Sequence record: PQ433351.1
Length of the DNA: 44,261 bases
DNA from: Escherichia phage vB_Ec-G9
Strand: one strand, 5' to 3'
Program-made: the position numbers and the translations under genes
In this document: piece by piece, positions 1 to 44,261 of the stretch
How the letters are laid out: each line of letters opens with the position of its first letter
How positions within the stretch are numbered: position 1 is the first letter of the stretch
Notes under the pieces: model-generated
The model's database searches: none
What the model was told of the DNA's origin: nothing
The model's input: only the letters and a program-made list of their open reading frames with translations

Positions 1-1988
1 TGGCTATTATTCAGAATGTACCGTGTCCTGCCTGTCAAAAGAATGGACATGATGTTACCGGCAACCATCTCATGATCTTTGATGATGGTGCTGGCTATTG
101 CAACCGTGGTCACTTCCACGATAACGGAAAGCCATACTACCATAAGCCCGAAGGTGGCATCGAGATAACCGAGTTGCCTATTACTGGCAATATCAAATAT
201 ACACCTTCTCAGTTCAAAGAGATGGAGAAGGAAGGGAAGATAAGCGACCTTAAGCTACGCGCCATCGCACTAGGTGGTATGCGTATGAAAGACCGTTGGG
301 AGGTTATGAATGAGCAAGAAAGGGCAGACCAAGAAGCAGATTGGAAACTTGATGTTGAATGGTTCCTCACGCTTAAGCGTAAGAACCTTGTATCCCGACA
401 CATTCGCGGCGACATCGCAGCACTATATGATGTGCGAGTGGGCCATGATGAGGAAGGAAGAGTCAATCGTCACTACTACCCCCGCTTCGAGAAAGGTGAG
501 CTAGTAGGCGCTAAGTGCCGTACCTTACCTAAAGACTTTAAGTTTGGTCATTTAGGTAAACTATTTGGTATGCAAGATCTTTTCGGTATGAATACTTTGT
601 CTCACGTGTTAGACAAGGGAAGACGAAAGGATTGCTTGCTTATTGTAGGCGGCGAACTTGATGCACTAGCAGCCCAGCAGATGCTTCTTGATTCCGCCAA
701 GGGCACTAAGTGGGAAGGACAACCATATCATGTGTGGTCTGTCAACAAGGGTGAGTCTTGCCTTGAAGAGATAGTGCAGAACCGTGAACACATCGCTCAA
801 TTCAAGAAGATTATATGGGGCTTTGATGGTGATGAGGTTGGGCAGAAGCAGAACCAACAAGCGGCTCGCCTGTTTCCTGGTAAATCCTATATCCTTGAGT
901 ATCCTTCTGGGTGCAAAGATGCTAACAAGGCATTGATGGCTGGCAAGGCTAAAGAATTTGTGGATGCTTGGTTTAATGCAAAGTCATCTGATGAAGTCTT
1001 TGGTAGCCAGATTAAATCTATCGCATCTCAAAGGGATAAGCTCAAGGCTGCACGTCCAGAGCAAGGACTATCATGGCCTTGGCCTAAGCTGAACAAGGTA
1101 ACGCTAGGTATTCGTAAGAACCAACTTATCATTGTAGGCGCAGGCTCTGGTGTAGGTAAGACTGAGTTCCTTCGTGAAGTAGTTAAGCACCTCATTGAAG
1201 AACACGGTGAATCTGTAGGCATCATTTCTACAGAAGACCCGATGGTCAAGGTGTCCCGTGCTTTTATCGGCAAGTGGATTGATAAGCGTATTGAGTTACC
1301 GCCAACCAACGACCCGAAAGAAGATGGATACCGTGAGGTGTTCGACTACACCGAGGAAGAGGCTAACGCCGCCATTGATTATGTAGCTGATACAGGTAAG
1401 CTGTTTGTAGCTGACCTAGAGGGTGACTATTCGATGGAAAAGGTAGAGCAAACTTGCCTAGAGTTTGAGGCTATGGGCATTTCTAATATCATCATTGATA
1501 ACTTAACGGGGATTAAATTAGATGAGCGTGCTTTTGGTGGGAAGGTTGGTGCACTTGATGAATGCGTCAAGCGGATTGGTACTATCAAAGACCGACACCC
1601 GGTTACTATATTCCTTGTATCACACCTTACACGTCCTCCGGCAAACCGTACCCAACACGAAGAAGGTGGCGAGGTTATCCTTTCTGACTTCCGAGGTTCA
1701 GGCGCTATCGGATTCTGGGCATCTTACGCCTTGGGGATTGAGCGTAATACAAGAGCTGAAACGCTTGACGAAAGGACTACCACGTACATCTCATGTGTCA
1801 AAGACCGCGACCAAGGAATCTGGACTGGAACCAAGGTCATGCTTAAGGGTGACATTCAAACCGGACGTTTAATGGAACCACAAGCCCGTACTAAGTCATT
1901 TGATACAGGTGAAGCAAGGCAACAAGAGGTGCCGGATTTACCGGACACTATAGAAGAGACAACCTTTGACGATGAACAGGAGTTTTAA
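1..1988 (+). CDS. DNA primase/helicase (T7 gp4-like); 5' end runs off the window start, the ATG is formed by pos 44261 + pos 1-2
   Basis: Open in frame from pos 3 with no stop; N-terminal Cys zinc ribbon CPAC...CNRGH typical of primases; Walker A GAGSGVGKT in helicase half; acidic C-terminus ending DDEQEF. Confidence 0.85.
   Translation, partial: AIIQNVPCPACQKNGHDVTGNHLMIFDDGAGYCNRGHFHDNGKPYYHKPEGGIEITELPITGNIKYTPSQFKEMEKEGKISDLKLRAIALGGMRMKDRWEVMNEQERADQEADWKLDVEWFLTLKRKNLVSRHIRGDIAALYDVRVGHDEEGRVNRHYYPRFEKGELVGAKCRTLPKDFKFGHLGKLFGMQDLFGMNTLSHVLDKGRRKDCLLIVGGELDALAAQQMLLDSAKGTKWEGQPYHVWSVNKGESCLEEIVQNREHIAQFKKIIWGFDGDEVGQKQNQQAARLFPGKSYILEYPSGCKDANKALMAGKAKEFVDAWFNAKSSDEVFGSQIKSIASQRDKLKAARPEQGLSWPWPKLNKVTLGIRKNQLIIVGAGSGVGKTEFLREVVKHLIEEHGESVGIISTEDPMVKVSRAFIGKWIDKRIELPPTNDPKEDGYREVFDYTEEEANAAIDYVADTGKLFVADLEGDYSMEKVEQTCLEFEAMGISNIIIDNLTGIKLDERAFGGKVGALDECVKRIGTIKDRHPVTIFLVSHLTRPPANRTQHEEGGEVILSDFRGSGAIGFWASYALGIERNTRAETLDERTTTYISCVKDRDQGIWTGTKVMLKGDIQTGRLMEPQARTKSFDTGEARQQEVPDLPDTIEETTFDDEQEF
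1935..1958 (+). promoter_or_regulatory. phage RNAP promoter embedded in primase/helicase 3' coding region
   Basis: GATTTACCGGACACTATAGAAGAG matches the window's promoter consensus; encodes PDTIEE in frame. Confidence 0.7.
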
Positions 1989-2149
1989 TGGAAATTATTA
2001 AACCAGTATTGAATATCGGTATTGAGATCCTATTCATGCTTGTGATCGCAGATTATGCTGCACGATATGGCTTCAAGAAAGCAGTGAAACTTATCGTTGC
2101 ATCTGGTTTTATGATGTCAATGTTCTTTATTGTAACACGCCTTATCTAG
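1988..2149 (+). CDS. small hydrophobic protein (53 aa)
   Basis: ATG overlaps upstream stop (TAATG); hydrophobic sequence; below ORF-track size cutoff, found by reading. Confidence 0.35.
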   Translation: MEIIKPVLNIGIEILFMLVIADYAARYGFKKAVKLIVASGFMMSMFFIVTRLI

Positions 2150-2166
2150 TGTATTTATCAGGGCTT

Positions 2167-2182
2167 GTCTCACATGTGAGAC
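2167..2182. repeat. 16-bp perfect palindrome GTCTCACATGTGAGAC (copy 1 of 7)
   Basis: Exact palindrome in intergenic gap, flanked by extra symmetric bases (GCTTG...CAGGC). Confidence 0.9.
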
Positions 2183-2221
2183 AGGCTCTTATTAAGTACA
2201 TTAAATAACTGGAGATTGATT

Positions 2222-2905
2222 ATGTATAAATTAGTATTGAATGTAGGTGATTATGTTCGTAACATCAATGAAGCCTCACGTCGTTATCGTTGCCGTGGTG
2301 TAGTGGCTCGTGTAAGTGAGAACATGTATCATGTAGAATATGATGATGGTATTAAGGCTTCTTATCACAAGAAAACCGCACATAAATATCTTGAAAAGGT
2401 TGTAGAGGTAAACAATCAATGTAAGTGCATACATGATGAGGTTTGCGATAAATGTGCTCGCCAGATGCTTAAGAATTTCCTAGCTCCTCTTTATTATGGT
2501 GCTGGTCCTCAAACACTAGCAGAGTGCATGGCAGAAAAGAAAACCACACTCAAGAAAGAGCGTCGCAATGTAATCACTGGTAAGACTCAAAGTGAGATGA
2601 TTAAGCAATGTGGCACTGCATTAGGTGTTACACAGTTCAATACTCGTGCATTGGGTAAATCCACAGGGCAAGCTATGGTGAAGATTGGCGAAGCCATGAT
2701 GCATCCGAATATACCTGTACGAATCATGGATATAGACCATGCAATCACAGAACATGGGTCTTCACGCCGTGTTATTAACACCCATTTTGCCGACACTATA
2801 GAAGGTATTATTCGTAAGCAAGGTTTGAAGGGTCTTCACATCTTAAATGGTGAAGAATTACTGTACCTACCTATCGTTACTGAAGAGACATACGTGGATA
2901 TCTAA
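2222..2905 (+). CDS. hypothetical protein (228 aa)
   Basis: ORF with RBS GGAG 7 nt upstream of ATG 2222; Cys-rich segment CKCIHDEVCDKC; no recognisable family. Confidence 0.65.
   Translation: MYKLVLNVGDYVRNINEASRRYRCRGVVARVSENMYHVEYDDGIKASYHKKTAHKYLEKVVEVNNQCKCIHDEVCDKCARQMLKNFLAPLYYGAGPQTLAECMAEKKTTLKKERRNVITGKTQSEMIKQCGTALGVTQFNTRALGKSTGQAMVKIGEAMMHPNIPVRIMDIDHAITEHGSSRRVINTHFADTIEGIIRKQGLKGLHILNGEELLYLPIVTEETYVDI
2783..2805 (+). promoter_or_regulatory. degenerate phage-promoter-like sequence inside coding region
   Basis: CATTTTGCCGACACTATAGAAGG: core GACACTATAGAAG intact, -13 to -10 deviate from consensus; encodes ADTIEG in frame. Confidence 0.35.
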
Positions 2906-2915
2906 GGAGTTAATC

Positions 2916-3134
2916 ATGACTAAGGTATTAATTTACATGCGTGGACCTCATAAATGCTATGCAGTTGTAGCACCAAATGGTGTTAAGCCCTATAGTACTT
3001 CAAAAGGATTGGCATTAATAGGTGCTAGTAGTAGTGCAAGTTTCCAAATGGAACTTTTTGGTCATTGGAATGAAAGGCAATTCCGTGAGGATTTTAAAGT
3101 CATTGGCAGCTTCATAGTGAAATATGCAGAATAA
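2916..3134 (+). CDS. hypothetical protein (72 aa)
   Basis: Strong RBS AAGGAG upstream of ATG 2916. Confidence 0.55.
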   Translation: MTKVLIYMRGPHKCYAVVAPNGVKPYSTSKGLALIGASSSASFQMELFGHWNERQFREDFKVIGSFIVKYAE

Positions 3135-3300: not shown

Positions 3301-3310
3301 GTCAAGGGTT

Positions 3311-3326
3311 GTCTCACACGTGAGAC
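3311..3326. repeat. palindrome variant GTCTCACACGTGAGAC (copy 2)
   Basis: One central base differs from the perfect palindrome; intergenic. Confidence 0.8.
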
Positions 3327-3357
3327 AGCCTTTCATCATATTGATTGGAGGTGCATT

Positions 3358-6212: not shown

Positions 6213-6269
6213 GTTATACTCAAGGTCACTTACGAGTGGCCTTTATGAATAACTTAACTGGAGAGTATT

Positions 6270-6530
6270 ATGATTAAATCACAGAAGTATTTCTCAACTA
6301 AAGATCGTAAGGTAGATTTTGAAATCAAAGTTTGGGAAGACGGACACATTACTATTATTTACGAAGGTAAAGGTTCTAATGGTATGATGCTACGTAGATG
6401 CCGTACATTCACAAAGAAAGAATGTATGCATATGTCTGAATGCATGTTTCTTTACATCATTGCTGATGATATTAAAGGTATGAAGCTAATTGTATCTCTA
6501 CCTTTAATACCTAAATCTTTGTTAGGTTGA
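6270..6530 (+). CDS. hypothetical protein (86 aa)
   Basis: ORF with RBS GGAG upstream. Confidence 0.5.
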   Translation: MIKSQKYFSTKDRKVDFEIKVWEDGHITIIYEGKGSNGMMLRRCRTFTKKECMHMSECMFLYIIADDIKGMKLIVSLPLIPKSLLG

Positions 6531-7875: not shown

Positions 7876-7884
7876 GGAGAAAGG

Positions 7885-10283: not shown

Positions 10284-10715
10284 ATGGACTGTATAGACCA
10301 CGGGCATTATAAGTGCTTAAATCAATTAGGTTACTACAGGTCGTGGCATAAACCTAGTAAGAAGTTGCAATTACTTCATCGCGTGGTCTATGCAGAGCAC
10401 CACGGCCTTTCTATAGAGGATATAAAGGATGTAGTGATTAGACACACTTGTGATAATGCAAGATGTATAAACCCTGCACACTTAATATCTGGTACACAGC
10501 AGGACAACATTCAAGACATGATAGGTAGAGGCAGGCGTGCTAGCTTTGCAGGCGAAAAGAATAATCGCGCTAAACTGACTTGGGATGTTGTACGTGCTAT
10601 CAGGGCAACATATGTTGCTAATAAGAAAGGTGAGAGGTTACGACTAGCTAAGCTATATAATGTCTCACCTGCTACCATTAGTGATATTGTAAGCGGGAGG
10701 GTTTGGAAAGAATAA
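10284..10715 (+). CDS. HNH homing endonuclease
   Basis: LHRVVYAEHHG ... VIRHTCDNARCINPAHL (HNH_3-like) plus C-terminal DNA-binding tail; RBS AAAGGAG. Confidence 0.8.
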   Translation: MDCIDHGHYKCLNQLGYYRSWHKPSKKLQLLHRVVYAEHHGLSIEDIKDVVIRHTCDNARCINPAHLISGTQQDNIQDMIGRGRRASFAGEKNNRAKLTWDVVRAIRATYVANKKGERLRLAKLYNVSPATISDIVSGRVWKE

Positions 10716-29129: not shown

Positions 29130-29324
29130 ATGATTAACTCCGAACTGGTAGATAGTGGTGTGAAGCTTGCGCCACCTGCACTCGTATCAGGTGGGTACTT
29201 CCTCGGTATCAGTTGGAATAATTGGGTGTTAATAGCAACATTCATTTATACCGTGTTGCAAATTGGGGACTGGTTTTATAATAAGTTCAAGATTTGGAGG
29301 GAGAAGCGTGAGCGTACACAATAA
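29130..29324 (+). CDS. class II holin (T7 gp17.5-like)
   Basis: ELVDSGVKLAPPALVSGGYFLGIS...IYTVLQIG closely parallels T7 holin ELIKAAPIVGTGVADVSARLFFGLS...AYTVVQIG. Confidence 0.8.
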   Translation: MINSELVDSGVKLAPPALVSGGYFLGISWNNWVLIATFIYTVLQIGDWFYNKFKIWREKRERTQ

Positions 29325-29607
29325 ACATGCAGCTACAGAGGACGAGGTTGGCATTCTGCATGGTGCTATTACCAAAATCTTCAATAAGAAAGCACAGGCA
29401 ATACTGGACACTATAGAAGAAGACCCTGATGCAGCATTACATTTAGTGTCTGGTAAGGATATTGGTGCGATGTGTAAGTGGGTTCTTGATAACGGCATTA
29501 CCGCCACACCTGCTGCACAGCAGGAAGAGTCCAAGTTATCTAAGCGCCTCAAGGCTATCCGAGAGGCATCCAGTGGTAAGATAATTCAATTCACTAAGGA
29601 GGATTGA
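29308..29607 (+). CDS. terminase small subunit (positional call)
   Basis: GTG start with RBS GGAGGGAG; between holin and large terminase as in T7 gene 18. Confidence 0.55.
   Translation: MSVHNKHAATEDEVGILHGAITKIFNKKAQAILDTIEEDPDAALHLVSGKDIGAMCKWVLDNGITATPAAQQEESKLSKRLKAIREASSGKIIQFTKED
29401..29422 (+). promoter_or_regulatory. phage RNAP promoter embedded in small terminase coding region
   Basis: ATACTGGACACTATAGAAGAAG; encodes LDTIEE in frame. Confidence 0.6.
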
Positions 29608-33167: not shown

Positions 33168-33192
33168 GATTTACTGGACACTATAGAAGAGG
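33168..33192 (+). promoter_or_regulatory. phage RNAP promoter upstream of tailspike genes
   Basis: GATTTACTGGACACTATAGAAGAGG. Confidence 0.8.
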
Positions 33193-33270
33193 TAAGATAG
33201 CGCCGTTCTTTTGAGCGGCCTATTACTAGCCAATCTTCATAGGGAGGGTTGGAAAGTAATAGGAGATAGC

Positions 33271-35169
33271 ATGGCTAAATTAACCAAACCTAATACTGAA
33301 GGAATCTTGCATAAAGGACAATCGTTGTATGAGTACCTTGATGCGAGAGTTTTAACATCAAAGCCGTTTGGTGCTGCAGGTGACGCCACTACTGATGATA
33401 CGGAGGTTATAGTTGCTTCATTAAACTCTCAGAAAGCTGTCACAGTCTCAGATGGTGTATTCTCTAGCTCTGGTATTAATAGTAATTACTGTAACTTAGA
33501 CGGTAGGGGTAGTGGCGTGCTAAGTCACCGTTCCAGTACAGGTAACTACTTAGTATTTAACAATCTACGTGCAGGTCGCTTAAGTAATATTACGGTAGAA
33601 AGTAATAAGGCGACTGATACAACTCAGGGACAGCAGGTATCTCTTGCTGGTGGAAGTGATGTTACTGTAAGTGACGTTAACTTCTCAAACGTTAAAGGTA
33701 CTGGTTTCAGTTTAATCGCATACCCTAATGATGCGCCACCTGATGGACTTATGATTAAAGGCATTCGAGGTAGCTATTCCGGCTATGCTACTAATAAGGC
33801 AGCCGGGTGTGTACTTGCTGACTCCTCAGTTAACTCCCTCATAGATAACGTCATTGCTAAGAACTACCCTCAGTTCGGAGCAGTAGAGCTGAAAGGTACA
33901 GCCAGTTATAACATAGTCAGCAATGTTATAGGGGCAGACTGCCAGCATGTAACTTACAACGGTACAGTAGGGTCAATAGCTCCCTCTAACAACCTTATCA
34001 ATGGGGTAGTGGCTAATAATCCTAAATATGCAGCGGTTGTTGCAGGCAAAGGTAGTACCAACTTAATCTCAGATGTGCTTGTAGATTTCTCAATCTCTGA
34101 TGCTAGTCAGGCTCACGGTGTTACAGTAGAAGGCTCTGATAACGTAATAAGCAATGTGCTTATGTCAGGATGTGATGGTACTAACTCTTCAGGACAAGCT
34201 CAAACTGCTACAATTGCGCGCTTTATAGGTACAGCTAATAACAACTATGCGTCTGTATTTCCTAGCTACAGTGCTACAGGTGTTATTACTTTCGAATCAG
34301 GTTCTACCCGTAACTTCGTAGAGGTAAAGCATCCGGGAAGGAGAAACGACCTTCTCAGTACTGCTAGTGCTATTGACGGTGCAGCTACTATTGACGGCAC
34401 TAGTAATAGTAACGTAGTGCACGCACCTGCCTTAGGGCAGTACATAGGTAGTATGTCAGGTAGGTTCGAATGGCGGATTAAGTCCATGTCACTCCCTTCA
34501 GGCGTTCTTACTTCTGCTGATAAGTACAGAATGCTTGGGGATGGTGCTGTGTCATTAGCTTTAGGTGGTGGCACTTCTTCTCAAGTTCGCCTATTTACTT
34601 CTGATGGTACTTCTCGGACAGTGTCCCTCACCAACGGTAACGTGCGTCTTTCTACCAGTAGCACAGGCTTTTTGCAGTTAGGTGCTGATGCAATGACCCC
34701 AGATAGTACTGGTACATACGCATTAGGTTCCGCCAGTCGAGCATGGTCTGGCGGTTTTACTCAAGCAGCATTCACTGTTACCTCAGATGCTCGGTGTAAA
34801 ACAGAACCTCTTACTATCTCAGATGCCTTACTGGATGCTTGGTCTGAAGTTGACTTTGTGCAGTTTCAGTATTTGGATCGTGTTGAGGAGAAGGGTGCAG
34901 ACTCAGCTAGATGGCACTTTGGCATCATAGCTCAGCGAGCTAAGGAGGCTTTCGAACGACACGGTATAGATGCACATCGCTATGGCTTCTTGTGCTTCGA
35001 CAGTTGGGATGATGTATACGAGGAAGATGCCAATGGCTCTCGTAAACTGATTACACCAGCAGGTTCCCGCTACGGTATTCGTTACGAGGAAGTACTGATA
35101 TTAGAGGCTGCGTTGATGCGGCGGACTATTAAGCGTATGCAGGAGGCACTAGCTTCCCTGCCTAAGTAA
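33271..35169 (+). CDS. tailspike 1 with beta-helix body and C-terminal intramolecular chaperone (peptidase S74-like) domain
   Basis: RBS AGGAG before ATG 33271; repetitive Ser/Thr/Asn/Gly-rich beta-helix-like body; C-terminal ~110 aa block (DARCKTEP...WHFGIIAQRAKEAF...GIRYEEVLILEAA) resembles the auto-cleaving chaperone domain of endosialidase/K5-lyase tailspikes, from memory. Confidence 0.7.
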   Translation: MAKLTKPNTEGILHKGQSLYEYLDARVLTSKPFGAAGDATTDDTEVIVASLNSQKAVTVSDGVFSSSGINSNYCNLDGRGSGVLSHRSSTGNYLVFNNLRAGRLSNITVESNKATDTTQGQQVSLAGGSDVTVSDVNFSNVKGTGFSLIAYPNDAPPDGLMIKGIRGSYSGYATNKAAGCVLADSSVNSLIDNVIAKNYPQFGAVELKGTASYNIVSNVIGADCQHVTYNGTVGSIAPSNNLINGVVANNPKYAAVVAGKGSTNLISDVLVDFSISDASQAHGVTVEGSDNVISNVLMSGCDGTNSSGQAQTATIARFIGTANNNYASVFPSYSATGVITFESGSTRNFVEVKHPGRRNDLLSTASAIDGAATIDGTSNSNVVHAPALGQYIGSMSGRFEWRIKSMSLPSGVLTSADKYRMLGDGAVSLALGGGTSSQVRLFTSDGTSRTVSLTNGNVRLSTSSTGFLQLGADAMTPDSTGTYALGSASRAWSGGFTQAAFTVTSDARCKTEPLTISDALLDAWSEVDFVQFQYLDRVEEKGADSARWHFGIIAQRAKEAFERHGIDAHRYGFLCFDSWDDVYEEDANGSRKLITPAGSRYGIRYEEVLILEAALMRRTIKRMQEALASLPK

Positions 35170-35175
35170 GCAACA

Positions 35176-35199
35176 GGCAGTGCGTAAGCACTGCTTTTC
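35176..35199 (+). terminator. intrinsic terminator between the two tailspike genes
   Basis: GGCAGTGC-GTAA-GCACTGC stem with tetraloop followed by TTTT. Confidence 0.6.
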
Positions 35200-35254
35200 A
35201 CGCAACTTTTCTTAAAGGTTATCATGGTGGTAGCCTTTCAGAAAAGGAGGTTAC

Positions 35255-36967
35255 ATGCTTCAAAGATTAAGTGCTTACTTGGTGAAGTACAAGAGTAAAC
35301 TAACAGGTACTATTGAGCGCCTGCTATCTGATAAACTATCGGATACAATAGATGTTGCGGATTTTGGAGTTAATCCATCCTCTAATGACAACAGGCAAGC
35401 CCTTCAAGCTGCATTCAATGCGGTCAGACTGCTAGGCGGTGGTACTGTAGCAGTCACTAAAGCTGGCGAATATAAACTCAGTGGTACTGTTGAGATATTT
35501 GCTAATACACACTTCAAGGTTGCTAAAGGTGTAACATTTGTACGTGACTACGAAACAGGAGATACTCTATTCAGATTATCACAAGGGCAAGCTAGTAATG
35601 TAACAGTCAGTGGAGGTATCTATGAAGGCAATGGTCACACTAAGGGAGATACACCTTTTGTAGTATTTGCATCTACTAGTAATAATGATTTGAAGTTTGA
35701 AGGCATAACAGTTAACAATGTAGTGGACTACCACGCCATAGATTTAGCAGATTGGAACAACGTAGTTATTCGTGATTGTAAATTCCTAGGGTTTAAGAAT
35801 ACAGGCAGTCGTAACTTCTCAGAGGCTATACAGTTAGACCCAGGACTTATTACAGTAGGTCGCTATGTGCAGTCTAGTGGTTTACTGGTAGAGAATTGCT
35901 ATGCTGGCCCAAACCTTGATTCTGGATTTGGCGGGTATGGTGCTCTAGTAGGGAATCATGCATCAGCTTATGGTGTTCAAGATAACAACATTAGAATCCT
36001 AAATTGCACTACAGATGGTGCGCTCTTTGCAGGTGTACGTGTATTTAACTGGAAAAACTGGACAGTACGTGGTTGCACCTTTAGAAACTCTAATGCAAGA
36101 GGTGTTCATGTTACACCTGTCTCCTCTCAAACTAAACCGCAAGGAACTCGACAAGGTAGTGTTGTAGATTGTACTTTTGATGGCGTAAGAACACCAGTGC
36201 TAATTGCTGCACCATCTTGGCCTTTTACCGATATTAGTGACATTTGGCATGACCATATTGAAATTTCTAATAATATTATGATCCTCACAGAGGATGTATC
36301 CTATGGTGTAGATGCAAGGTGGTGTAAGAATTTAATTGTAAAAGGTAATACAGGCTCTGGTGGCTTAGGGTTAATCGGTTTACGCTTTGGGACAAAGTAC
36401 CACATCGAAGGTAATACTTGGGAAAACGGAAGAGGTAGTGGGATTTGGTTAAGTGAGTCTGATGCTACTACATTCATTGGTACTGGTTTATCAGGAGAAG
36501 GTATACTTAGTCGTAATATCTTCTCTAAATTAGGGCAACATGGTATTCATGTAAACTGCAAGGTTGGCGGTCTAGTGATTAAGGCTAATAATATGAAGGA
36601 AGTATCTACAGCTGAAGCAGGTAGGCACTTCATTAGCATAGACACAGGAGCTAACAACATCCTAGTAGAGGGTAATATTGGAGTAGATGGAGAAAGCCCT
36701 AACAAGCCAAGCCTTGGTATTAGTGTTACTTCTTCTTGCTCCAATATTAAACTAATTGGCAATGATTGCTATGGTACGCAAGCACCTCAGGATAACCAAG
36801 GAGTCGGTTCTAGTACGGTGATTGTTTATGGACTAAATGGCAATCCTACAACTTTAGGCGTAGGTGCACCTGTAGGCTCTTTAGCAACTAATATCAATGG
36901 GTCTGGTGGTAGTGCATTGTACGTTAAAAAATCTGGTACTTCTGCTAAAGGCTGGGTTGCAAAGTAG
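35255..36967 (+). CDS. tailspike 2, right-handed beta-helix (pectate-lyase-like depolymerase fold)
   Basis: Strong RBS AAAGGAGG; repeated NxxV / GNxG beta-helix-like motifs; no chaperone domain. Confidence 0.75.
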   Translation: MLQRLSAYLVKYKSKLTGTIERLLSDKLSDTIDVADFGVNPSSNDNRQALQAAFNAVRLLGGGTVAVTKAGEYKLSGTVEIFANTHFKVAKGVTFVRDYETGDTLFRLSQGQASNVTVSGGIYEGNGHTKGDTPFVVFASTSNNDLKFEGITVNNVVDYHAIDLADWNNVVIRDCKFLGFKNTGSRNFSEAIQLDPGLITVGRYVQSSGLLVENCYAGPNLDSGFGGYGALVGNHASAYGVQDNNIRILNCTTDGALFAGVRVFNWKNWTVRGCTFRNSNARGVHVTPVSSQTKPQGTRQGSVVDCTFDGVRTPVLIAAPSWPFTDISDIWHDHIEISNNIMILTEDVSYGVDARWCKNLIVKGNTGSGGLGLIGLRFGTKYHIEGNTWENGRGSGIWLSESDATTFIGTGLSGEGILSRNIFSKLGQHGIHVNCKVGGLVIKANNMKEVSTAEAGRHFISIDTGANNILVEGNIGVDGESPNKPSLGISVTSSCSNIKLIGNDCYGTQAPQDNQGVGSSTVIVYGLNGNPTTLGVGAPVGSLATNINGSGGSALYVKKSGTSAKGWVAK

Positions 36968-36978
36968 TAGGAGGTTGA

Positions 36979-37128
36979 ATGCCATTAATCAAATCAGTCA
37001 AGCAAAGTGCTGTACGCCAGAACACAGAAGAGCTTATTCAATCAGGACGTGACCATAAGCAAGCTTATGCGATTGCCAAGGATGTACAACGTCGTGCTAT
37101 GAAGAAACCTTCTGCATCTTCTGCGTAA
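36979..37128 (+). CDS. hypothetical small basic protein (49 aa)
   Basis: Strong RBS AGGAGG; below ORF-track cutoff. Confidence 0.4.
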   Translation: MPLIKSVKQSAVRQNTEELIQSGRDHKQAYAIAKDVQRRAMKKPSASSA

Positions 37129-37154
37129 GCAGGTTAATATCTTAGGAGGTAATT

Positions 37155-37616
37155 ATGGAAGTTTGGAGGCCTATTGCTGGTATACCAGATTACATGGTTT
37201 CCTCCTTTGGTCGTGTTAGATCTCATAAAAGAGGTAAGGTTACTATACTAAACCCTCCGCACGACAAAGGAGGTTATCGTAATGTTGTGCTACGTGTTAA
37301 TGGTGAAAAGATAAATCGCAAGGTACATAGGCTTGTGGCAGAGGCTTTCTTACCTAACCCTCACGGTTTACCTCAAGTAAATCACAAGGATGAAGTAAGA
37401 GACAATAATCATGTAAGTAATCTGGAGTGGTGTGATTGTGCATACAACGTAGATTACTCTCAAGCAGCTACTTATACTGTGATGTGCCCTAAAGGTAATA
37501 TCTTAGTAGTAAGGAATGTGGCTAAGTTTTGTAGGGAAAACGGATTAAGCAGTGGTTCTTTTACAGATATGCTTAAGGGAAGACGTAAGCAACATAAGGG
37601 TTATCGCTTAGTGTAA
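37155..37616 (+). CDS. HNH homing endonuclease (NUMOD4 + HNH)
   Basis: WRPIAGIPDYMVSSFGRV (NUMOD4-like) and VNHKDEVRDNNHVSNLEW (HNH). Confidence 0.8.
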   Translation: MEVWRPIAGIPDYMVSSFGRVRSHKRGKVTILNPPHDKGGYRNVVLRVNGEKINRKVHRLVAEAFLPNPHGLPQVNHKDEVRDNNHVSNLEWCDCAYNVDYSQAATYTVMCPKGNILVVRNVAKFCRENGLSSGSFTDMLKGRRKQHKGYRLV

Positions 37617-37669
37617 TACTTAGTGAGAGGGCTATACATGCCAAGTGGAAAATTTGATATGTATATGCG

Positions 37670-37980
37670 TCAAGTGTCTCGCCCTCGCCCTCGCCGGGTT
37701 GTCCCCATAGGGTGGCCTGAGGGAATCCGTCGAAGACGGGCAGGGCTGATGTCCTCCTTGGCTAGTACAAGGGAAGACCGAGGGAACGCCTAGGACGGCC
37801 TAGGGAATGGTTTAGTGGCGGACAAGGTGATTGCCTTAGTGAAGCCTCTTAGTACATTCCTGAGGCCATTCAGGGCGTTTATGAGGCATTGACAGGGTGG
37901 GCGTGGGTGGGCTATCTGTTCGTTTCGTTCACTCCGCTTGCGCTACGTTCACTCGCTCACGTGTACCTTAGGTTGTTCCT
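37670..37980. other. GC-rich non-coding segment; candidate terminal-repeat / genome-end region
   Basis: No ORF of 60 aa or more on either strand in 37617-38418; composition unlike flanking genes; short direct repeat CGTTCACTC twice. Confidence 0.3.
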
Positions 37981-37990
37981 TGATGGATAG

Positions 37991-38093
37991 CTTAGGTTAG
38001 CCTTAGTGGACTACCTTAGTTATAACCTTAGTGCTTATCTTAGTAATAGCTTAGTAGTGTACCTTAGTAAGTCTTAGTGTCTTCTCTTAGTGA
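37991..38093. repeat. array of about 9 short [CT]CTTAG[GT] heptamer-like repeats at about 12-bp period
   Basis: GCTTAGG, CCTTAGTG, CCTTAGTT, CCTTAGTG, TCTTAGTA, GCTTAGTA, CCTTAGTA, TCTTAGTG, TCTTAGTG; further scattered copies to 38410. Confidence 0.8.
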
Positions 38094-38238
38094 TTGCACA
38101 TGCAAGCATGTAAGATGCCATTAGGTCGCGGTCGGTAGACCGCTAAAGAAAGAGAATAGTAATAAGATGCAGTAGGAGGAACACCAGAAACCTAGCCAAC
38201 CTAGCCTATCCTAGCTCTGTATCTATTGCTTTTCCTTA

Positions 38239-38254
38239 GTCTCACATGTTAGAC
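38239..38254. repeat. palindrome variant GTCTCACATGTTAGAC (copy 5)
   Basis: One half-site base changed. Confidence 0.75.
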
Positions 38255-38288
38255 AACCTAGCTTATTCTTAGTGATGATAACTTAGTG

Positions 38289-38317
38289 TTGACAAGATAA
38301 TCTTAGTGTAATACTAT
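38289..38317 (+). promoter_or_regulatory. host sigma70-type early promoter candidate
   Basis: TTGACA - 17 bp - TACTAT. Confidence 0.55.
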
Positions 38318-38389
38318 GCATCACGTAGGCGGTGCTGAGGCACCTAGTAGCCAGCTAGTAAGGCATACGAAGAGACTAGCGCTTACATT

Positions 38390-38401
38390 GCTCTTTAACA
38401 A
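38390..38401 (+). promoter_or_regulatory. boxA-like antitermination element (copy 1)
   Basis: GCTCTTTAACAA, extended TTGCTCTTTAACAATTTG, identical to E. coli rrn boxA core. Confidence 0.6.
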
Positions 38402-38460
38402 TTTGCTTAGTGTAACCTATGTATGCCGTGGTTAATTACTTATTGAATGAGGGATTAACT

Positions 38461-38640
38461 ATGACATTAAACAACCGTGAACTATCCGTTCTCTTCACTC
38501 TGTTGTGCTACATGATTCGTAACAACGAATTGCTTACAGATGACGAGTTGGCACTGTATCACCGCTTTCTTAACGAAGGTTGGACCGATACAGTTAATCA
38601 ATACCGTAACATGATAGATGAGTTGAGGGAGGGTAAATAA
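38461..38640 (+). CDS. early hypothetical protein (59 aa)
   Basis: RBS GAGGG before ATG 38461; ORF-track start 38419 lies inside an inverted repeat and lacks an RBS. Confidence 0.55.
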   Translation: MTLNNRELSVLFTLLCYMIRNNELLTDDELALYHRFLNEGWTDTVNQYRNMIDELREGK

Positions 38641-38864
38641 TGTATCAACATGAGGTATTCTTTGAATCAGCTAGCGAAGCTATTCGCTTCCGTGATGATA
38701 TGATGCAAGCTGGTGTAGGCGTTGATGTGTATCACTATTTGATAGATTACGACACTGAATATCACCGAGTTACCTTAGTATCTGAGTATGACAACCAAGT
38801 CATTACTGAGTATCTAGGCAGTGAAGATTACGATTACGATGAAGTAATCACGACAAATCTCTAA
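38640..38864 (+). CDS. early acidic Asp/Tyr-rich protein (74 aa)
   Basis: RBS GAGGGAGGG; ATG overlaps upstream stop; acidic C-terminus EDYDYDEVITTNL. Confidence 0.6.
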   Translation: MYQHEVFFESASEAIRFRDDMMQAGVGVDVYHYLIDYDTEYHRVTLVSEYDNQVITEYLGSEDYDYDEVITTNL

Positions 38865-38872
38865 ATTAACTG

Positions 38873-38901
38873 TTGACAGCCACGGCATACAAGGTTACAT
38901 T
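38873..38901 (+). promoter_or_regulatory. host sigma70-type early promoter candidate
   Basis: TTGACA - 17 bp - TACATT. Confidence 0.5.
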
Positions 38902-38934
38902 AAGCATCAAGACGGCGACGTCTTTAAACATCCC

Positions 38935-38946
38935 GCTCTTTAACAA
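38935..38946 (+). promoter_or_regulatory. boxA-like antitermination element (copy 2)
   Basis: CCGCTCTTTAACAAGATG. Confidence 0.55.
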
Positions 38947-38993
38947 GATGGCTAGTGTCTTGATAGGCTAACTGACTAACTAAGGTAATTATC

Positions 38994-39104
38994 ATGAAAG
39001 GTTTAATTTGTGTAGAACGTATGGTCAATGGTAAACTTGAAATATTACCACTGGAAAACCAATCTAGCTTCAAAGAGTGGTATGGCTGTTTCTCACTGAT
39101 TTAA
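38994..39104 (+). CDS. early hypothetical small protein (36 aa)
   Basis: ATG 38994; weak RBS; flanked by boxA copies and a short inverted repeat. Confidence 0.3.
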   Translation: MKGLICVERMVNGKLEILPLENQSSFKEWYGCFSLI

Positions 39105-39146
39105 AGTAAAGGCTGGCACTAGTCAGCCTATCAAGGCACTATCCTT

Positions 39147-39158
39147 GCTCTTTAACAA
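39147..39158 (+). promoter_or_regulatory. boxA-like antitermination element (copy 3)
   Basis: TTGCTCTTTAACAATTTG, 18/18 identical to copy 1. Confidence 0.6.
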
Positions 39159-39253
39159 TTTGGAAGGTAGCTTCTTAGTCGGGATAGGTTAGACCTAGGG
39201 CATTCTTTGAGTGCCCTATAATGTAACCTAACTAACTAATGAGGATTAATAAC

Positions 39254-39610
39254 ATGGCTATGTCTAATATGACTTACTCTCAGGTTTACAACACCGCTCA
39301 CGCTGCATTAGTTGAACGTATCTGGGATGATGCTATTGATTGTATCGATAACGCACATGATGCAATCCATGAGGTGGCGGATAGTGCTGTACCAATCTAT
39401 TATGCTGACATCTTCTCAGTGATGGCCAGTGAAGGCATCGACCACTTCTTCGAGGATTCTGGCTTAATGCCAGACACTAAGGATGTGACGGTCGTACTAC
39501 AAGCCCGTATTTATGAACAACTCACCATTGATTTATGGGAACGTGTTCAAGATATGATTGATGCGTACATCGACTCAGCCGAAGATTTAGAAGAAGAAGA
39601 GGAAGAATAA
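39254..39610 (+). CDS. ocr: Ocr-like DNA-mimic anti-restriction protein (T7 gene 0.3 homologue)
   Basis: MAMSNMTY... [18 protein letters not shown]...[13 protein letters not shown]...[15 protein letters not shown] closely matches T7 Ocr as recalled; acidic EEEEEE C-terminus; RBS GAGGA. Confidence 0.85.
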
Positions 39611-39612
39611 AG

Positions 39613-39726
39613 ATGGAAAAGCAATATAACTTTATCTTTTCTGATGGTGTAACCTTGAAATGCTCCTTACGATTCGCCCAGATTCGCGAGGAAGTGCTAG
39701 GTACTACATATAAACTATTTATCTGA
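39613..39726 (+). CDS. early hypothetical small protein (37 aa)
   Basis: ATG 3 nt after ocr stop; below ORF-track cutoff. Confidence 0.3.
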   Translation: MEKQYNFIFSDGVTLKCSLRFAQIREEVLGTTYKLFI

Positions 39727-39740
39727 CACTATAAGAGAGG
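39716..39740 (+). promoter_or_regulatory. phage-promoter-like variant (ACTATAAGAG)
   Basis: TATTTATCTGACACTATAAGAGAGG: upstream half matches, +1 region differs. Confidence 0.35.
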
Positions 39741-39805
39741 ATTTAACAGGGCGTTACTTGTTAGCGCCCGATTAAGTTTATCTCAATAAACCAAATAGGT
39801 GACTT

Positions 39806-40690
39806 ATGACTACTGAAAACACCCTCCTGTCTGTTCGTGAAGCTGCAACCGCTGAGATCAAGCAACACTTAGACAATATCGGCACTTCTTACATCAAAGT
39901 TGGCGCTTGTCTTAATGAGTTACGCGGTGACTTTGAAGGTCAAAAAGACTTTTTGGCTTATGTAGAATCAGAATTTGGAATCAAGAAAGCACAATGTTAC
40001 AAGCTGATGAGTGTAGCCCGTGTCTTTGAAGGCGATGATCGCTTTAAAGGCGTGGCGATGCGTGTAATGCTGGCACTTGTTCCTTTCGCTGATGAAAATA
40101 TCATCATGGAGAAAGCCGCAGAACTTGCCGCAGCGGGCAAGCTGGACACTAACGCCGTGAACGCCCTGATTGAGCCTAAGAAAGAGCCAAAGTCTGAGAC
40201 GGTACAATCCAAGGCTGAGCCTGTAAAACCGAAGGAGAACGCGACTGCGGCCGCAGAATTACAGGAAACGCAAGCGCCGCAGGAAGTGCCGCCAGCAAGT
40301 GAGTCGGATGACGACAAATCAGCACCGTGGGAAGAGGAAAGCAAGCCGGAAGCGCCAAAGGCCGCGCCACTGGACAACACGGCTAACACTGAAAACGCCG
40401 CTATGGCTGGCCTACTGGCACAAATTAAGGCACTGACTGAGCAATTACAGGCAGCTAACGACCGCATCGCCGCCCTAACCAGTGCACGTGAAAGCAAGAA
40501 GGCAGCCGCGCCTATGCTTCCCCAATTCAAATCTAAATGTCTCTATGCTCGCTTGGGTTTAAGCGCTGAGGAGGCAACGAAGAAAACAGCAGTTAACAAG
40601 GCACGCCGCGAACTGGTTAAGCTAGGCTATGGTGAAGGCCATGAAGCATGGGCCTTAATCTCTGAGGCAGTAGAAGAATTAACTAAGTAA
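39806..40690 (+). CDS. early protein with low-complexity Pro/Glu/Lys/Ala-rich central linker (294 aa)
   Basis: ORF immediately upstream of RNAP gene (position of T7 gene 0.7); noticeably GC-richer codon usage; no kinase motifs seen. Confidence 0.6.
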   Translation: MTTENTLLSVREAATAEIKQHLDNIGTSYIKVGACLNELRGDFEGQKDFLAYVESEFGIKKAQCYKLMSVARVFEGDDRFKGVAMRVMLALVPFADENIIMEKAAELAAAGKLDTNAVNALIEPKKEPKSETVQSKAEPVKPKENATAAAELQETQAPQEVPPASESDDDKSAPWEEESKPEAPKAAPLDNTANTENAAMAGLLAQIKALTEQLQAANDRIAALTSARESKKAAAPMLPQFKSKCLYARLGLSAEEATKKTAVNKARRELVKLGYGEGHEAWALISEAVEELTK

Positions 40691-40753
40691 CCTTATCGGT
40701 GGCATCTTCTTAGGTGTCACCTATTAAGGTTTCTTTCACTAGGAGTAAACAAG

Positions 40754-43381
40754 ATGCAAGACTTACACGCTATTCAACTTCAACTTGAAGAAGAAATGTT
40801 TAACGGCGGTATCCGTCGCTTTGAAGCGGACCAACAGCGCCAGATTGCATCCGGTAATGAATCAGACACGGCATGGAATCGCCGCTTATTGTCCGAGTTA
40901 ATTGCGCCAATGGCTGAAGGTATTCAGGCATACAAGGAAGAGTATGAAGGTAAAAGAGGCCGTGCACCGCGTGCATTAGCTTTCATTAACTGCGTAGAAA
41001 ATGAAGTGGCAGCGTATATCACGATGAAAATCGTTATGGATATGCTGAACACGGATGTAACCTTGCAGGCTATAGCCATGAATGTAGCTGACCGCATTGA
41101 GGACCAAGTACGTTTTAGCAAGCTGGAAGGTCACGCCGCCAAATACTTTGAGAAAGTTAAGAAGTCACTTAAGGCAAGTAAGACTAAATCATATCGCCAT
41201 GCGCACAACGTAGCGGTCGTGGCTGAGAAGTCAGTAGCTGACCGTGACGCTGATTTCTCTCGCTGGGAGGCGTGGCCTAAAGATACCTTGCTACAAATCG
41301 GTATGACCTTGCTAGAAATACTGGAAAATAGTGTATTCTTCAATGGTCAGCCTGTCTTTCTTCGCACCTTGCGCACTAATGGTGGCAAGCATGGCGTTTA
41401 CTACTTACAGACTAGCGAACACGTAGGTGAATGGATAACTGCATTTAAAGAGCACGTAGCTCAGCTGAGTCCAGCCTATGCACCTTGCGTTATTCCTCCG
41501 CGTCCGTGGGTTTCTCCGTTTAATGGTGGCTTTCACACCGAGAAGGTGGCGAGTCGTATTCGTCTGGTTAAAGGAAACCGCGAGCACGTCCGCAAGCTGA
41601 CCAAAAAGCAAATGCCAGCGGTTTACAAGGCTGTTAACGCTTTGCAGGCGACTAAGTGGCAGGTTAATAAAGAGGTTTTGCAGGTAGTAGAGGACGTTAT
41701 CCGTCTCGACCTTGGTTATGGTGTGCCTTCCTTTAAACCACTCATCGACCGTGAGAACAAGCCAGCTAATCCAGTGCCGTTAGAGTTCCAGCACCTGCGA
41801 GGCCGTGAACTTAAAGAGATGCTAACGCCAGAACAGTGGCAAGCTTTTATAAACTGGAAAGGAGAATGTACCAAGCTGTATACCGCTGAAACTAAGCGCG
41901 GAAGCAAGTCGGCGGCGACCGTTCGCATGGTAGGACAAGCGCGCAAGTACAGCCAGTTCGACGCGATTTATTTCGTGTATGCACTGGATAGCCGTTCACG
42001 CGTTTATGCGCAATCTAGCACGCTCTCTCCGCAATCAAACGACTTAGGCAAGGCATTGCTCCGTTTTACCGAAGGGCAGCGTCTTGATAGCGCTGAGGCG
42101 CTTAAGTGGTTTTTGGTGAACGGGGCGAATAACTGGGGTTGGGATAAGAAAACTTTTGACGTGCGCACCGCTAACGTGCTGGATAGCGAATTTCAAGACA
42201 TGTGCCGCGACATTGCAGCCGACCCGCTGACCTTCACTCAATGGGTAAATGCTGATTCCCCTTACGGCTTCCTTGCATGGTGCTTTGAATATGCGCGTTA
42301 TCTGGATGCACTGGATGAAGGCACGCAAGACCAATTCATGACGCACCTACCCGTCCATCAAGACGGTAGTTGCTCTGGTATCCAGCACTATAGCGCGATG
42401 TTACGCGATGAAGTAGGTGCGAAAGCAGTAAACCTTAAGCCTTCTGACTCCCCTCAAGATATTTATGGCGCGGTTGCGCAGGTTGTTATCCAGAAGAATT
42501 ACGCCTACATGAATGCAGATGATGCAGAGACTTTCACATCTGGAAGCGTCACACTTACAGGTGCAGAACTGCGTAGCATGGCTAGTGCGTGGGATATGAT
42601 AGGAATCACTCGCGGCCTGACCAAAAAGCCCGTAATGACACTACCTTATGGCAGCACACGTCTAACCTGCCGTGAATCAGTGATTGATTATATCGTTGAT
42701 TTGGAAGAAAAAGAGGCCCAACGAGCTATTGCCGAAGGGCGGACGGCGAATCCCGTGCACCCTTTTGATAATGACCGCAAAGACTACCTTACACCTGGTG
42801 CAGCCTACAACTATATGACGGCTTTAATTTGGCCTTCTATCTCTGAGGTTGTTAAAGCTCCTATAGTGGCGATGAAGATGATTCGCCAGCTTGCACGTTT
42901 CGCAGCTAAAAGGAATGAAGGGTTAGAATACACCTTGCCAACTGGCTTCATCTTGCAACAAAAGATAATGGCTACCGATATGCTCCGTGTATCCACTTGC
43001 TTGATGGGTGAAATCAAGATGAGTCTACAGATTGAAACTGATGTAGTGGATGAAACGGCAATGATGGGCGCTGCCGCTCCTAACTTTGTTCACGGGCACG
43101 ATGCTAGTCACCTTATATTAACGGTATGTGACCTTGTTGATAAAGGGATTACATCTATCGCAGTAATTCATGATTCTTTTGGCACTCATGCAGGCCGTAC
43201 AGCCGATCTACGCAACAGCTTAAGGGCAGAAATGGTGAAGATGTATCAAGGCCGTAATGCACTGCAAAGCCTGCTAGATGAGCACGAAGAACGCTGGTTA
43301 GTTGATACAGGAATCCAAGTACCAGAGCAAGGAGAGTTTGACCTTAACGAAATCTTAGTATCTGACTATTGCTTCGCATAA
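40754..43381 (+). CDS. single-subunit DNA-dependent RNA polymerase (T7/SP6 type)
   Basis: [39 protein letters not shown] and C-terminal SDYCFA match T7 RNAP catalytic and C-terminal motifs; 875 aa. Confidence 0.95.
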
Positions 43382-43389
43382 TATTAATA

Positions 43390-43420
43390 GGCCATTCCTT
43401 CGGGAGTGGCCTTTCTTTTA
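43390..43420 (+). terminator. strong intrinsic terminator with UUCG tetraloop after RNAP gene
   Basis: GGCCATTCC-TTCG-GGAGTGGCC (9-bp stem, one G.U) followed by TTTCTTTT. Confidence 0.8.
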
Positions 43421-43454
43421 CCTACTACCTGTAACATTTCATTAACATAAACGT

Positions 43455-43470
43455 GTCTAACATGTGAGAC
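43455..43470. repeat. palindrome variant GTCTAACATGTGAGAC (copy 6)
   Basis: Mirror-image variant of copy 5; abuts promoter at 43471. Confidence 0.75.
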
Positions 43471-43495
43471 TTATTTACCGGACACTATAGGATAG
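43471..43495 (+). promoter_or_regulatory. phage RNAP promoter
   Basis: TTATTTACCGGACACTATAGGATAG. Confidence 0.7.
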
Positions 43496-43499
43496 CCGT

Positions 43500-43630: not shown

Positions 43631-43640
43631 GATCTAGGTT

Positions 43641-43656
43641 GTCTCACATGTGAGAC
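43641..43656. repeat. 16-bp perfect palindrome GTCTCACATGTGAGAC (copy 7)
   Basis: Exact; 4 bp upstream of promoter at 43661. Confidence 0.9.
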
Positions 43657-43660
43657 TTCG

Positions 43661-43684
43661 TATTTACCGGACAGTATAGATAAG
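43661..43684 (+). promoter_or_regulatory. phage RNAP promoter (variant -5 G)
   Basis: TATTTACCGGACAGTATAGATAAG. Confidence 0.6.
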
Positions 43685-43706
43685 ACTAACTTACTTTGGA
43701 GGTTAC

Positions 43707-44123
43707 ATGCGTAAATCATTAGCTCAAAGAGTAGAGCAAGCAGGTTATACTATACAAGACGACGGCACTATCAAAGGTAAACGAGGTAACACCTTGAAAC
43801 CCTGGCTTCAATCTTCAGGATATCCAGTTGTAAATATAGTATTCAAGAAAGGTACAAGAACAACTACCCTTGTGCATCGCATAATTGCTAGTAAGTATTG
43901 TCCTTGCTCTGACCCATTGGCTAATGATGTAAACCACAAAGACGGAAACAAGACTAATAATGCAGCTTCTAATCTTGAATGGATTACACGTAGGCAGAAC
44001 CGTAATCACTATTTAGGTTTTGAGGACTATATGATACTTACGGCAGATGATGCCCGTAAGAAGAATAATGAGCGCACTATTGCTCGACGTAAATTACTTA
44101 AACAGTTGAATAATAAGGATTAA
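43707..44123 (+). CDS. HNH homing endonuclease
   Basis: LVHRIIASKY ... VNHKDGNKTNNAASNLEW; RBS GGAGG. Confidence 0.8.
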   Translation: MRKSLAQRVEQAGYTIQDDGTIKGKRGNTLKPWLQSSGYPVVNIVFKKGTRTTTLVHRIIASKYCPCSDPLANDVNHKDGNKTNNAASNLEWITRRQNRNHYLGFEDYMILTADDARKKNNERTIARRKLLKQLNNKD

Positions 44124-44125
44124 TT

Positions 44126-44257
44126 ATGCGTACTAACTTTGAGAAGATGACCCGTAAAGCTAACCGTTTTGACATGGAAGAAGGGCAGAAGAAAGGCAAG
44201 AAGCTGAACAAACCTGTCCGCGACCGTGCATCTAAACGCGCTGCGTGGGAGTTCTAA
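44126..44257 (+). CDS. hypothetical small basic protein (43 aa)
   Basis: RBS AAGGA 6 nt before ATG 44126; directly upstream of primase/helicase start. Confidence 0.4.
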   Translation: MRTNFEKMTRKANRFDMEEGQKKGKKLNKPVRDRASKRAAWEF

Positions 44258-44261
44258 GTTA

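Follow-up and report, generated by a model that had tools for sequence, protein, structure and literature searches.

The window, the whole 44,261-nt stretch of DNA that was analyzed, holds the genes of a lytic K1-5/K1E-like phage belonging to Vectrevirus (Autographiviridae, Molineuxvirinae), a genus in the SP6-like branch of the T7 supergroup. For 48 of the 52 K1-5 proteins, a single matching locus was found in the same order, and all of these homologues lie on the plus strand. Collinearity with K1-5 extends over the whole genome once the window is rotated to position 37679. Such single copies in a collinear order agree with an earlier sequence-only reading of this DNA, which had noted that each module of a T7-like phage is present once. 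The single-subunit RNA polymerase gene (40754–43381, plus strand) encodes 875 aa with RPOL_N and RNA_pol domains (E 8e-90) and is 99.2% identical to K1-5 gp7; look-ups for exact copies of this protein and of the DNA polymerase gave no match. The small and large terminase genes (TerS, 29308–29607; TerL, 29607–31505; both plus strand) are of the T7 type, and their products share 100% amino acid identity with those of K1-5. For TerL, this amounts to 632 of 632 identical residues, and the protein carries PF22530 (Terminase-T7_RNaseH-like).

Several elements depart from K1-5. Three HNH open reading frames (ORFs) in the window (10289–10715, 37155–37616 and 43707–44123) are without a K1-5 counterpart. 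The ORF at 37155–37616 (plus strand), an insertion relative to K1-5, is HNH/NUMOD4 homing-endonuclease-like and is the final gene before the terminal repeat, while the one at 43707–44123 (plus strand) encodes an HNH_3 endonuclease between the RNA polymerase gene and the 1.1-like gene and is present in VEc3 but not in K1-5. The ocr homologue has only 61% identity to that of K1-5. The first tailspike is a K5 lyase, 97.6% identical to its K1-5 equivalent, and the second is a 570-aa beta-helix protein that replaces the K1 endosialidase of K1-5. The phage appears to be a further member of Vectrevirus, with a K5-lyase and a beta-helix tailspike.

Phage promoters of the TTAC[CT]GGACA[CG]TATAG type were matched 10 times, all on the plus strand, against 0.32 matches expected. 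None of these matches falls between 33186 and 43475, which fits an early region that starts at the left end of the genome.

The length of the window compares with genomes of 43.7–45.2 kb in the genus. Intergenomic similarity to K1-5, VEc3, EEc4, T147P1, LI10P5, 6948, fTuEco01 and ACG-C91 ranges from 77 to 90%, and a genus is delimited in ICTV practice at roughly 70% nucleotide intergenomic similarity. Membership in Vectrevirus is borne out by the phage RNA polymerase, the similarity above this threshold, the collinearity, and the single-strand gene arrangement with SP6/K1-5-type promoters. Because similarity reaches at most 89.7% among the nine relatives compared, the phage is probably a new species of this known genus.

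The primase start codon at the window ends

The gene for the primase/helicase is divided between the two ends of the window. The A of its ATG start codon is the final window base (44261, plus strand), and the TG, codons 2–662 and the stop codon occupy 1–1988 (plus strand). The 3′ end reads ...GCGTGGGAGTTCTAAGTTA, the last A being position 44261, and the 5′ start reads TGGCTATT; joined, they give ATG GCT ATT. The joined ORF (44261 plus 1–1988) encodes a 662-aa primase/helicase with Toprim (Toprim_2) and DnaB_C domains. It is 98.3% identical to K1-5 gp9 in an alignment that spans residues 1–662, the first of which falls at 44261.

A GGGAG Shine-Dalgarno-like motif (44247–44251, plus strand) lies 9 nt (44252–44260) upstream of this ATG, within the end of the preceding gene. 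The latter is a 43-aa T7 gene 1.1-like ORF (44126–44257, plus strand) that contains PF08200 (Phage_T7_1_1) and is 97.5% identical to K1-5 gp8. Its TAA stop codon (44255–44257) shares the frame of the primase and closes the primase ORF upstream, so the ATG at 44261 is the first possible primase start. The second in-frame ATG lies at position 72. The start codon spanning the window ends, together with its GGGAG motif, was recognized in the sequence-only reading, and the alignment of K1-5 gp9 from its first residue upholds it.

The two ends of the window adjoin one another in every relative checked, with the join at 6950/6951 in VEc3, 5980/5981 in KMB47, 14919/14920 in LI10P5 and 6246/6247 in AAPEc6. 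A 49-nt junction sequence that includes GGGAG was matched exactly in four IMG/VR contigs, and its ATG in ACG-C91 is the primase start annotated by the depositors themselves (6892). The same 49-mer had no match in bacterial genome contigs. An independent Logan contig of 3071 bp, 99.8% identical to the window, crosses the junction without an indel, and junction-spanning Logan contigs free of indels were found at 99.8–99.9% identity (ERR15500961, ERR15903923 and ERR15500962). A search for a terminal overlap of at least 10 nt between the window ends, as would be left by the k-mer of an assembler or by a repeat that had not been collapsed, found none. The window is one complete genome copy with its break one base inside the primase ATG, as the sequence-only reading had claimed in calling it a complete, circularly permuted genome.

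The putative terminal repeat and its boundaries

A non-coding concatemer-junction region at 37617–38460 comprises the right unique end, the terminal repeat, and the left unique end, where short repeats and candidate early host promoters are located. No ORF of at least 60 aa lies between 37616 and the homologue of K1-5 gene 1, which starts at 38461. Within this region, homology to the K1-5 repeat and boundary motifs common to relatives delimit a putative direct terminal repeat of 238 bp (37677–37914, plus strand), collapsed to a single copy. The earlier suggestion that the true ends lie in the ORF-free interval 37620–38288 holds up well, in that the homologues of the K1-5 and SP6 repeat boundaries, which have an experimental basis, fall at 37677 and 37914.

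The exact 234-bp repeat of K1-5 maps to 37679–37914 at 91.5% identity, with the right arm of K1-5 aligning through 37914 and its left arm from 37679 on. Exact repeats computed from the sequence records are 234 bp in K1-5, 304 bp in VEc3, 285 bp in R4596, 174 bp in SP6 and 160 bp in T7. All five start with TC(TC) and end in CTA ahead of TCTGTT, although the T7 boundary is shifted by 1 nt. K1-5, VEc3, R4596 and SP6 share the fuller boundaries, TCTCGCC on the left and GGGCTA followed by TCTGTT on the right, and both motifs are single-copy in the window. The predicted left end (37677) begins TCTCGCCCTCGCC and the predicted right end (37914) finishes with GGGCTA. The records of EEc4, fTuEco01 and ACG-C91 begin at a common TCTCGCCC, those of AAPEc6 and EC120 begin at the position equivalent to 37915, and the 45 nt from 37677 match the left end of EEc4 exactly. 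The repeat region is also a GC island (0.55 versus 0.40).

Immediately to the left of the repeat, the window reads ...GTCAAGTG before TCTCGCC, compared with ...GTGTCAGCTC in relatives. Because of this differing flank, the left boundary is uncertain by about 2 nt, and the K1-5 record itself starts 2 nt later. A window-specific 43-mer at this border found its sole IMG/VR match in a 95.5% relative, and neither GTDB genomes nor JGI metagenomes gave a match. Within the repeat, the ends of Logan and metagenomic contigs are clustered near 37726, 37804, 37838 and 37853. The clustering hints weakly at a repeat or a break in coverage, since contigs can be broken at repeats by assemblers for more than one reason.

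Eight CTTAGT(G) repeats spaced by about 12 bp (38002–38092, plus strand) lie directly to the right of the terminal repeat, and 18 copies in total occur in 37502–38406, on the plus strand only. The array is shared with K1-5, and T7 carries CTAAAG repeats at the equivalent site. A scan of 37500–39400 for sigma-70 promoters and terminators gave counts not above those of shuffled sequences; two 10/12 sigma-70 matches (38289 and 38873) correspond in position to the A promoters of T7, in a scan that was at chance level overall.

The likeness to T7 extends to the left end, where both start with TCTC and carry CCCCATAGGG at offset 27–36, and to the close of the repeat, CT(A) before TCTGTT. It continues through the heptamer-like short repeat array that follows (CTAAAG in T7, CTTAGT in the window), the early genes that come next (ocr and RNA polymerase) and the terminase type. 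However, T7 belongs to Studiervirinae rather than Molineuxvirinae, its repeat is 160 bp rather than 238 bp, its DNA-metabolism module is ordered differently, and there is little other sequence identity.

Published repeat lengths vary. A direct terminal repeat (DTR) of 179 bp, similar to that of SP6, was determined by run-off and Bal31 experiments in the SP6-like phage UAB_Phi78 (PMC4837284). The repeat of AAPEc6 was reported as 261 bp (PMC5543629), and those of KAW1A4500 and R4596 as 266 and 428 bp (PMC6563267), the last at odds with the 285-bp exact repeat present in the R4596 record. Lengths used here were taken from sequence records in preference to literature figures. From the mapped boundaries, we infer that the virion DNA is linear, about 44,499 bp long, with 238-bp direct terminal repeats at unique ends.

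Packaging and the layout of the record

The window is almost certainly a full-length, single-copy K1-5/SP6-like phage genome in a rotated, circularized record, whose real ends would lie, by homology, at 37677 and 37914. According to established T7/SP6 biology, replication would produce head-to-tail concatemers in which neighboring genomes share a single repeat copy at each junction. Cleavage by the T7-type terminase would then occur at TCTCGCC (37677) and just past GGGCTA (37914), with duplication of the repeat during packaging, yielding unique, non-permuted linear virion DNA. Short-read assembly could merge both repeat copies into a circular contig that may be opened anywhere. The position of the break most likely stems from an intentional rotation, meant to begin the record at a gene and off by one base. 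The term “circularly permuted”, used in the sequence-only reading, is therefore apt for the record but not for the phage, whose T7-type terminase points to unique ends and a short exact repeat; the permutation appears to be a property of the record and not of phage biology.

One variant accepts the rotated genome and supposes that the ends or the repeat length differ from the K1-5 type, for example through the small deletion to the left of 37677 and the HNH insertion beside it. Repeat lengths do vary in the genus (234–304 bp as computed; 261, 266 and 428 bp as reported), and relatives carry a different sequence directly beside the left edge of the repeat. In the exact-repeat records, however, the length differences are internal indels and both boundary motifs are constant. 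With each motif present once in the window and a terminase identical to that of K1-5, we consider shifted ends very unlikely. A related thought is that the HNH/NUMOD4 ORF, beyond homing, also helps to nick or process the concatemer junction. It is the last gene, lies 60 bp from the predicted terminase cut site and is identically placed in 14 contigs, and HNH proteins act with terminase in some cos phages. Such a role is highly improbable, since K1-5 does without the gene although its TerS, TerL and repeat boundaries are identical.

If packaging were instead of the headful (pac) type, the phage itself would be circularly permuted and terminally redundant without fixed ends, and the window would be one of many permutations. 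The sole point in favor is that the window circularizes without loss. Set against it are the T7-type terminase (PF22530) that is 100% identical to that of K1-5, the exact 234-bp repeat at unique ends in the K1-5 record, the recurrence of the same end sequences among independently deposited linear records, and the experimentally demonstrated ends of the SP6-like UAB_Phi78 (PMC4837284), all of which make headful packaging exceedingly unlikely. There is likewise only a minute chance that the window comes from the interior of a larger replicon, whether a prophage, a plasmid or a longer contig, with a coincidental ATG at the junction. Relatives and the 99.8%-identical contig run from 44261 directly into 1, in length and gene content the window corresponds to a single Vectrevirus genome, and every sizeable ORF is either a K1-5 gene match or an HNH insert. 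Neither an integrase nor plasmid functions were seen among the window ORFs.

The rotated, circularized K1-5-type genome has its main relevance in data hygiene. With the primase start codon split, gene callers will miss or shorten the first gene, and the open-reading-frame listing of the window indeed starts the primase at 72. The record would also conceal where the DNA truly ends, together with one copy of the 238-bp repeat; because only one of the two copies is present, the window should be about 238 bp shorter than the virion DNA, and the genome length is understated accordingly. The ends, repeat and packaging type are already described for T7, SP6 and K1-5 and are not biologically new, and the rotation and collapse are an ordinary record or assembly artefact.

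Among the closest known systems is K1-5 (AY370674 / NC_008152; Vectrevirus K15), which resembles the window in gene order, RNA polymerase, primase, TerS and TerL, K5 lyase and repeat boundaries, although intergenomic similarity is only 85.3%. Its record is a linear sequence that starts at the true left end and has the repeat at both ends, whereas the rotated window has a single copy. A canonical K1-5-type map would be obtained by rotating the window to 37677 and appending 37677–37914. Three relatives with 88–90% intergenomic similarity to the window, 6948 (OL362272.1), T147P1 (OZ035788.1) and LI10P5 (OZ035816.1), are likewise permuted, circularized records, broken at an arbitrary or selected gene, with a single internal repeat copy. 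Their sequences start at terS or close to it, in the case of 6948 exactly at the terS ATG, whereas the window was opened inside the primase ATG.

Continuity of the genome across the window ends

The 3' end of the window reads ...GCG TGG GAG TTC TAA GTT A and its 5' end TG GCT ATT ATT. Joining them creates an ATG from the final A (44261) and bases 1-2, with a GGGAG at 44247-44251 spaced 9 nt from the A. A 43-aa ORF resembling T7 gene 1.1 (44126-44257; PF08200) stops at the TAA of 44255-44257, which shares its frame with the downstream primase ORF; the junction ATG is therefore the earliest possible primase start. The joined primase/helicase ORF is 662 aa long, contains Toprim and DnaB_C domains, and is 98.3% identical to the primase/helicase gp9 of phage K1-5 over residues 1-662, with residue 1 falling on base 44261. 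The sequence-only reading had proposed both the split start codon and the upstream GGGAG, and both hold. A second in-frame ATG lies at 72, where a mechanical ORF list starts the primase; gene prediction on the record as it stands would thus lose 23 codons from the start of the protein.

Bases 44261 and 1 are adjacent in the linear records of the related phages VEc3 (6950/6951), KMB47 (5980/5981), LI10P5 (14919/14920) and AAPEc6 (6246/6247), and single HSPs crossed the junction when the rotated window was aligned to K1-5 and VEc3. A junction-spanning 49-nt sequence has exact matches in four IMG/VR contigs, and in phage ACG-C91 its ATG is the primase start annotated by the depositors (6892). The most direct evidence comes from Logan contigs of three sequencing runs (ERR15500961, ERR15903923 and ERR15500962), which match the window at 99.8-99.9% identity and span 41978 through 44261 and on to 1-787 with no indel. 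Because relatives and Logan contigs run across the junction, and the window's own two ends show no overlap, the window is exactly one turn of a circularised sequence and not a piece of a larger molecule with other flanks. Ends that join each other, a length of one genome and the lack of matches in bacterial genomes all contradict the idea that it is part of a larger replicon.

A single terminal repeat marks the inferred physical ends

Exact terminal repeats computed from deposited linear records measured 234 bp in K1-5, 304 bp in VEc3, 285 bp in R4596, 174 bp in SP6 and 160 bp in T7. In all SP6-like records the left end is (TC)TCGCCCTCGCC... (TCTCTCGGCC... in SP6 itself), and the repeat closes with ...GGGCTA followed by TCTGTTCG. 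The T7 record is similar, beginning TCTC with a repeat that ends ...CCCT/ATCTGTT. Records of EEc4, fTuEco01 and ACG-C91, which lack the right copy, likewise begin at TCTCGCCC and stop just short of it. Those of AAPEc6 and EC120 begin at window position 37915, the first base past the repeat. The left boundary motif TCTCGCCCTCGCC occurs once in the window, at 37677, where 45 nt are identical to the left end of EEc4; the right boundary motif GGGCTA/TCTGTT also occurs once, with its A at 37914. Furthermore, K1-5 aligns with its left arm from 37679 on and with its right arm up to 37914. The window thus has one 238-bp repeat copy (37677-37914) flanked by the counterparts of the right and left arms of the genome, and this order of right unique sequence, one repeat and left unique sequence is exactly the arrangement of a concatemer junction. 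The ends had been predicted to lie somewhere in the region without ORFs at 37620-38288; the boundary motifs of relatives narrow this prediction to 37677 and 37914.

The ends of K1-5 and SP6 were reportedly determined directly, by Scholl et al. and Dobbins et al. in 2004. In the window, the repeat stands out as a GC island (0.55 versus about 0.40), and CCCCATAGGG lies within it at 37703-37712, at offset 27-36 relative to the left end inferred here. The same offset is seen in T7, K1-5, EEc4 and R4596, with the element 2 nt later in SP6; it is palindrome-like and conserved across two subfamilies. Short exact repeats at unique ends in SP6-like phages have been shown for UAB_Phi78, in which Bal31 and run-off sequencing gave a 179-bp repeat described as SP6-similar (PMC4837284). 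For R4596 (MK373771.1), the 285-bp exact repeat of the record differs from the 428 bp stated in the publication (PMC6563267).

By established T7/SP6 biology, replication would yield concatemers with one repeat per junction, and terminase would cut at 37677 and 37914 with duplication of the repeat. Virion DNA would then be linear and unique, 44,261 + 238 = about 44,499 bp long, a length inside the genus range of 43.7-45.2 kb; assemblers would collapse its two repeat copies into a circle. The terminase, a T7-type enzyme with the same sequence as in K1-5, contradicts headful packaging with true circular permutation, as do the fixed and conserved ends of relatives. A shift of the ends in this particular phage has a low probability, given that the 10 nt left of 37677 are unlike those of relatives and that published repeat lengths vary; in the records, however, length differences are internal indels and the boundaries are unchanged.

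Eight CTTAGT(G) repeats with a spacing of ~12 bp form a dense array after the terminal repeat (38002-38092). Flanking and following the repeat, 37502-38406 holds 18 copies of CTTAGT on the + strand and none on the - strand, and the 7-mer is found 21 times across the window as a whole, with 7.4 expected. The array recurs in K1-5, and at the equivalent place T7 carries one of CTAAAG; the CTTAGT copies presumably have to do with packaging or with how the genome end enters the cell. The ten phage promoters of SP6/K1-5 type are all plus-stranded, and the stretch from 33186 to 43475 contains none, which fits a host-transcribed early region beginning at the left end.

Origin of the break position

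Circularised Vectrevirus genomes are routinely opened at a gene of choice: the phage 6948 record opens exactly at the terS ATG, that of T147P1 at window position 29279 and that of LI10P5 at about 29279-29296, each with a single internal repeat. The present record opens exactly one base past the A of the primase ATG. Because the odds of a chance break inside a start codon are only about 0.4% (~55 genes x 3 nt / 44,261), this suggests a deliberate (fix-start) rotation with an off-by-one error. The earlier observation and its interpretation were both correct: what is seen is the usual T7/SP6/K1-5 arrangement of terminal repeats, viewed through a rotated record. For a phage of a known kind, this is an ordinary artefact of the record.

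Relationship to K1-5

Megablast against 50,697 phage records returned 60 that cover at least 80% of the first 25 kb of the window, the best of them at 95-96% identity; all are Vectrevirus (K1-5, K1E, VEc3, EEc4, AAPEc6 and others; Autographiviridae, Molineuxvirinae). Rotated to 37679, the window is collinear end to end with K1-5 and VEc3. A single locus each, in conserved order, was matched by 48 of the 52 K1-5 proteins, the four without a match in the window all being ORFs of 42-98 aa. Identity to K1-5 is 99.2% for RNAP, 99.6% for portal and 100% for TerS and TerL, and Pfam confirmed RNAP, family-A DNA polymerase, portal and T7-type terminase. All modules are thus present once, as expected from the sequence-only reading. 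Similarity by a VIRIDIC-like measure is at most 89.7% to nine Vectrevirus records (85.3% to K1-5), and therefore the 95% rule, applied to these nine records, likely places the phage in a new species within a known genus.

The HNH ORFs, the second tailspike and the diverged ocr set the phage apart from K1-5 and have no bearing on the reading of the record as a rotated genome. Three HNH endonuclease ORFs, two of HNH_3 type (10289-10715 and 43707-44123) and one of NUMOD4 HNH type (37155-37616), occupy sites that are empty in K1-5 and look like mobile homing endonucleases; that at 43707-44123 is common to VEc3, and the exact protein of 37155-37616 is found in 14 contigs at the same site, where it is the final gene ahead of the repeat. 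Relative to K1-5 and VEc3, the window also carries a ~270-bp insertion (6256-6528) with an 86-aa ORF (6270-6530) that has no Pfam match. The first tailspike (33271-35169) is 97.6% identical to the K5 lyase of K1-5. The K1-5 endosialidase, in contrast, is replaced by a 570-aa right-handed beta-helix tailspike (35255-36967) that has only the N-terminal ~100 aa in common with it (34%). This is a swap of the receptor-binding module, so that the phage is probably not K1-specific. The ocr-like anti-restriction gene (39239-39610) appears to be an early gene that is locally fast-evolving or exchanged, having diverged to 61% identity with K1-5 ocr among neighbours at 90-100%.
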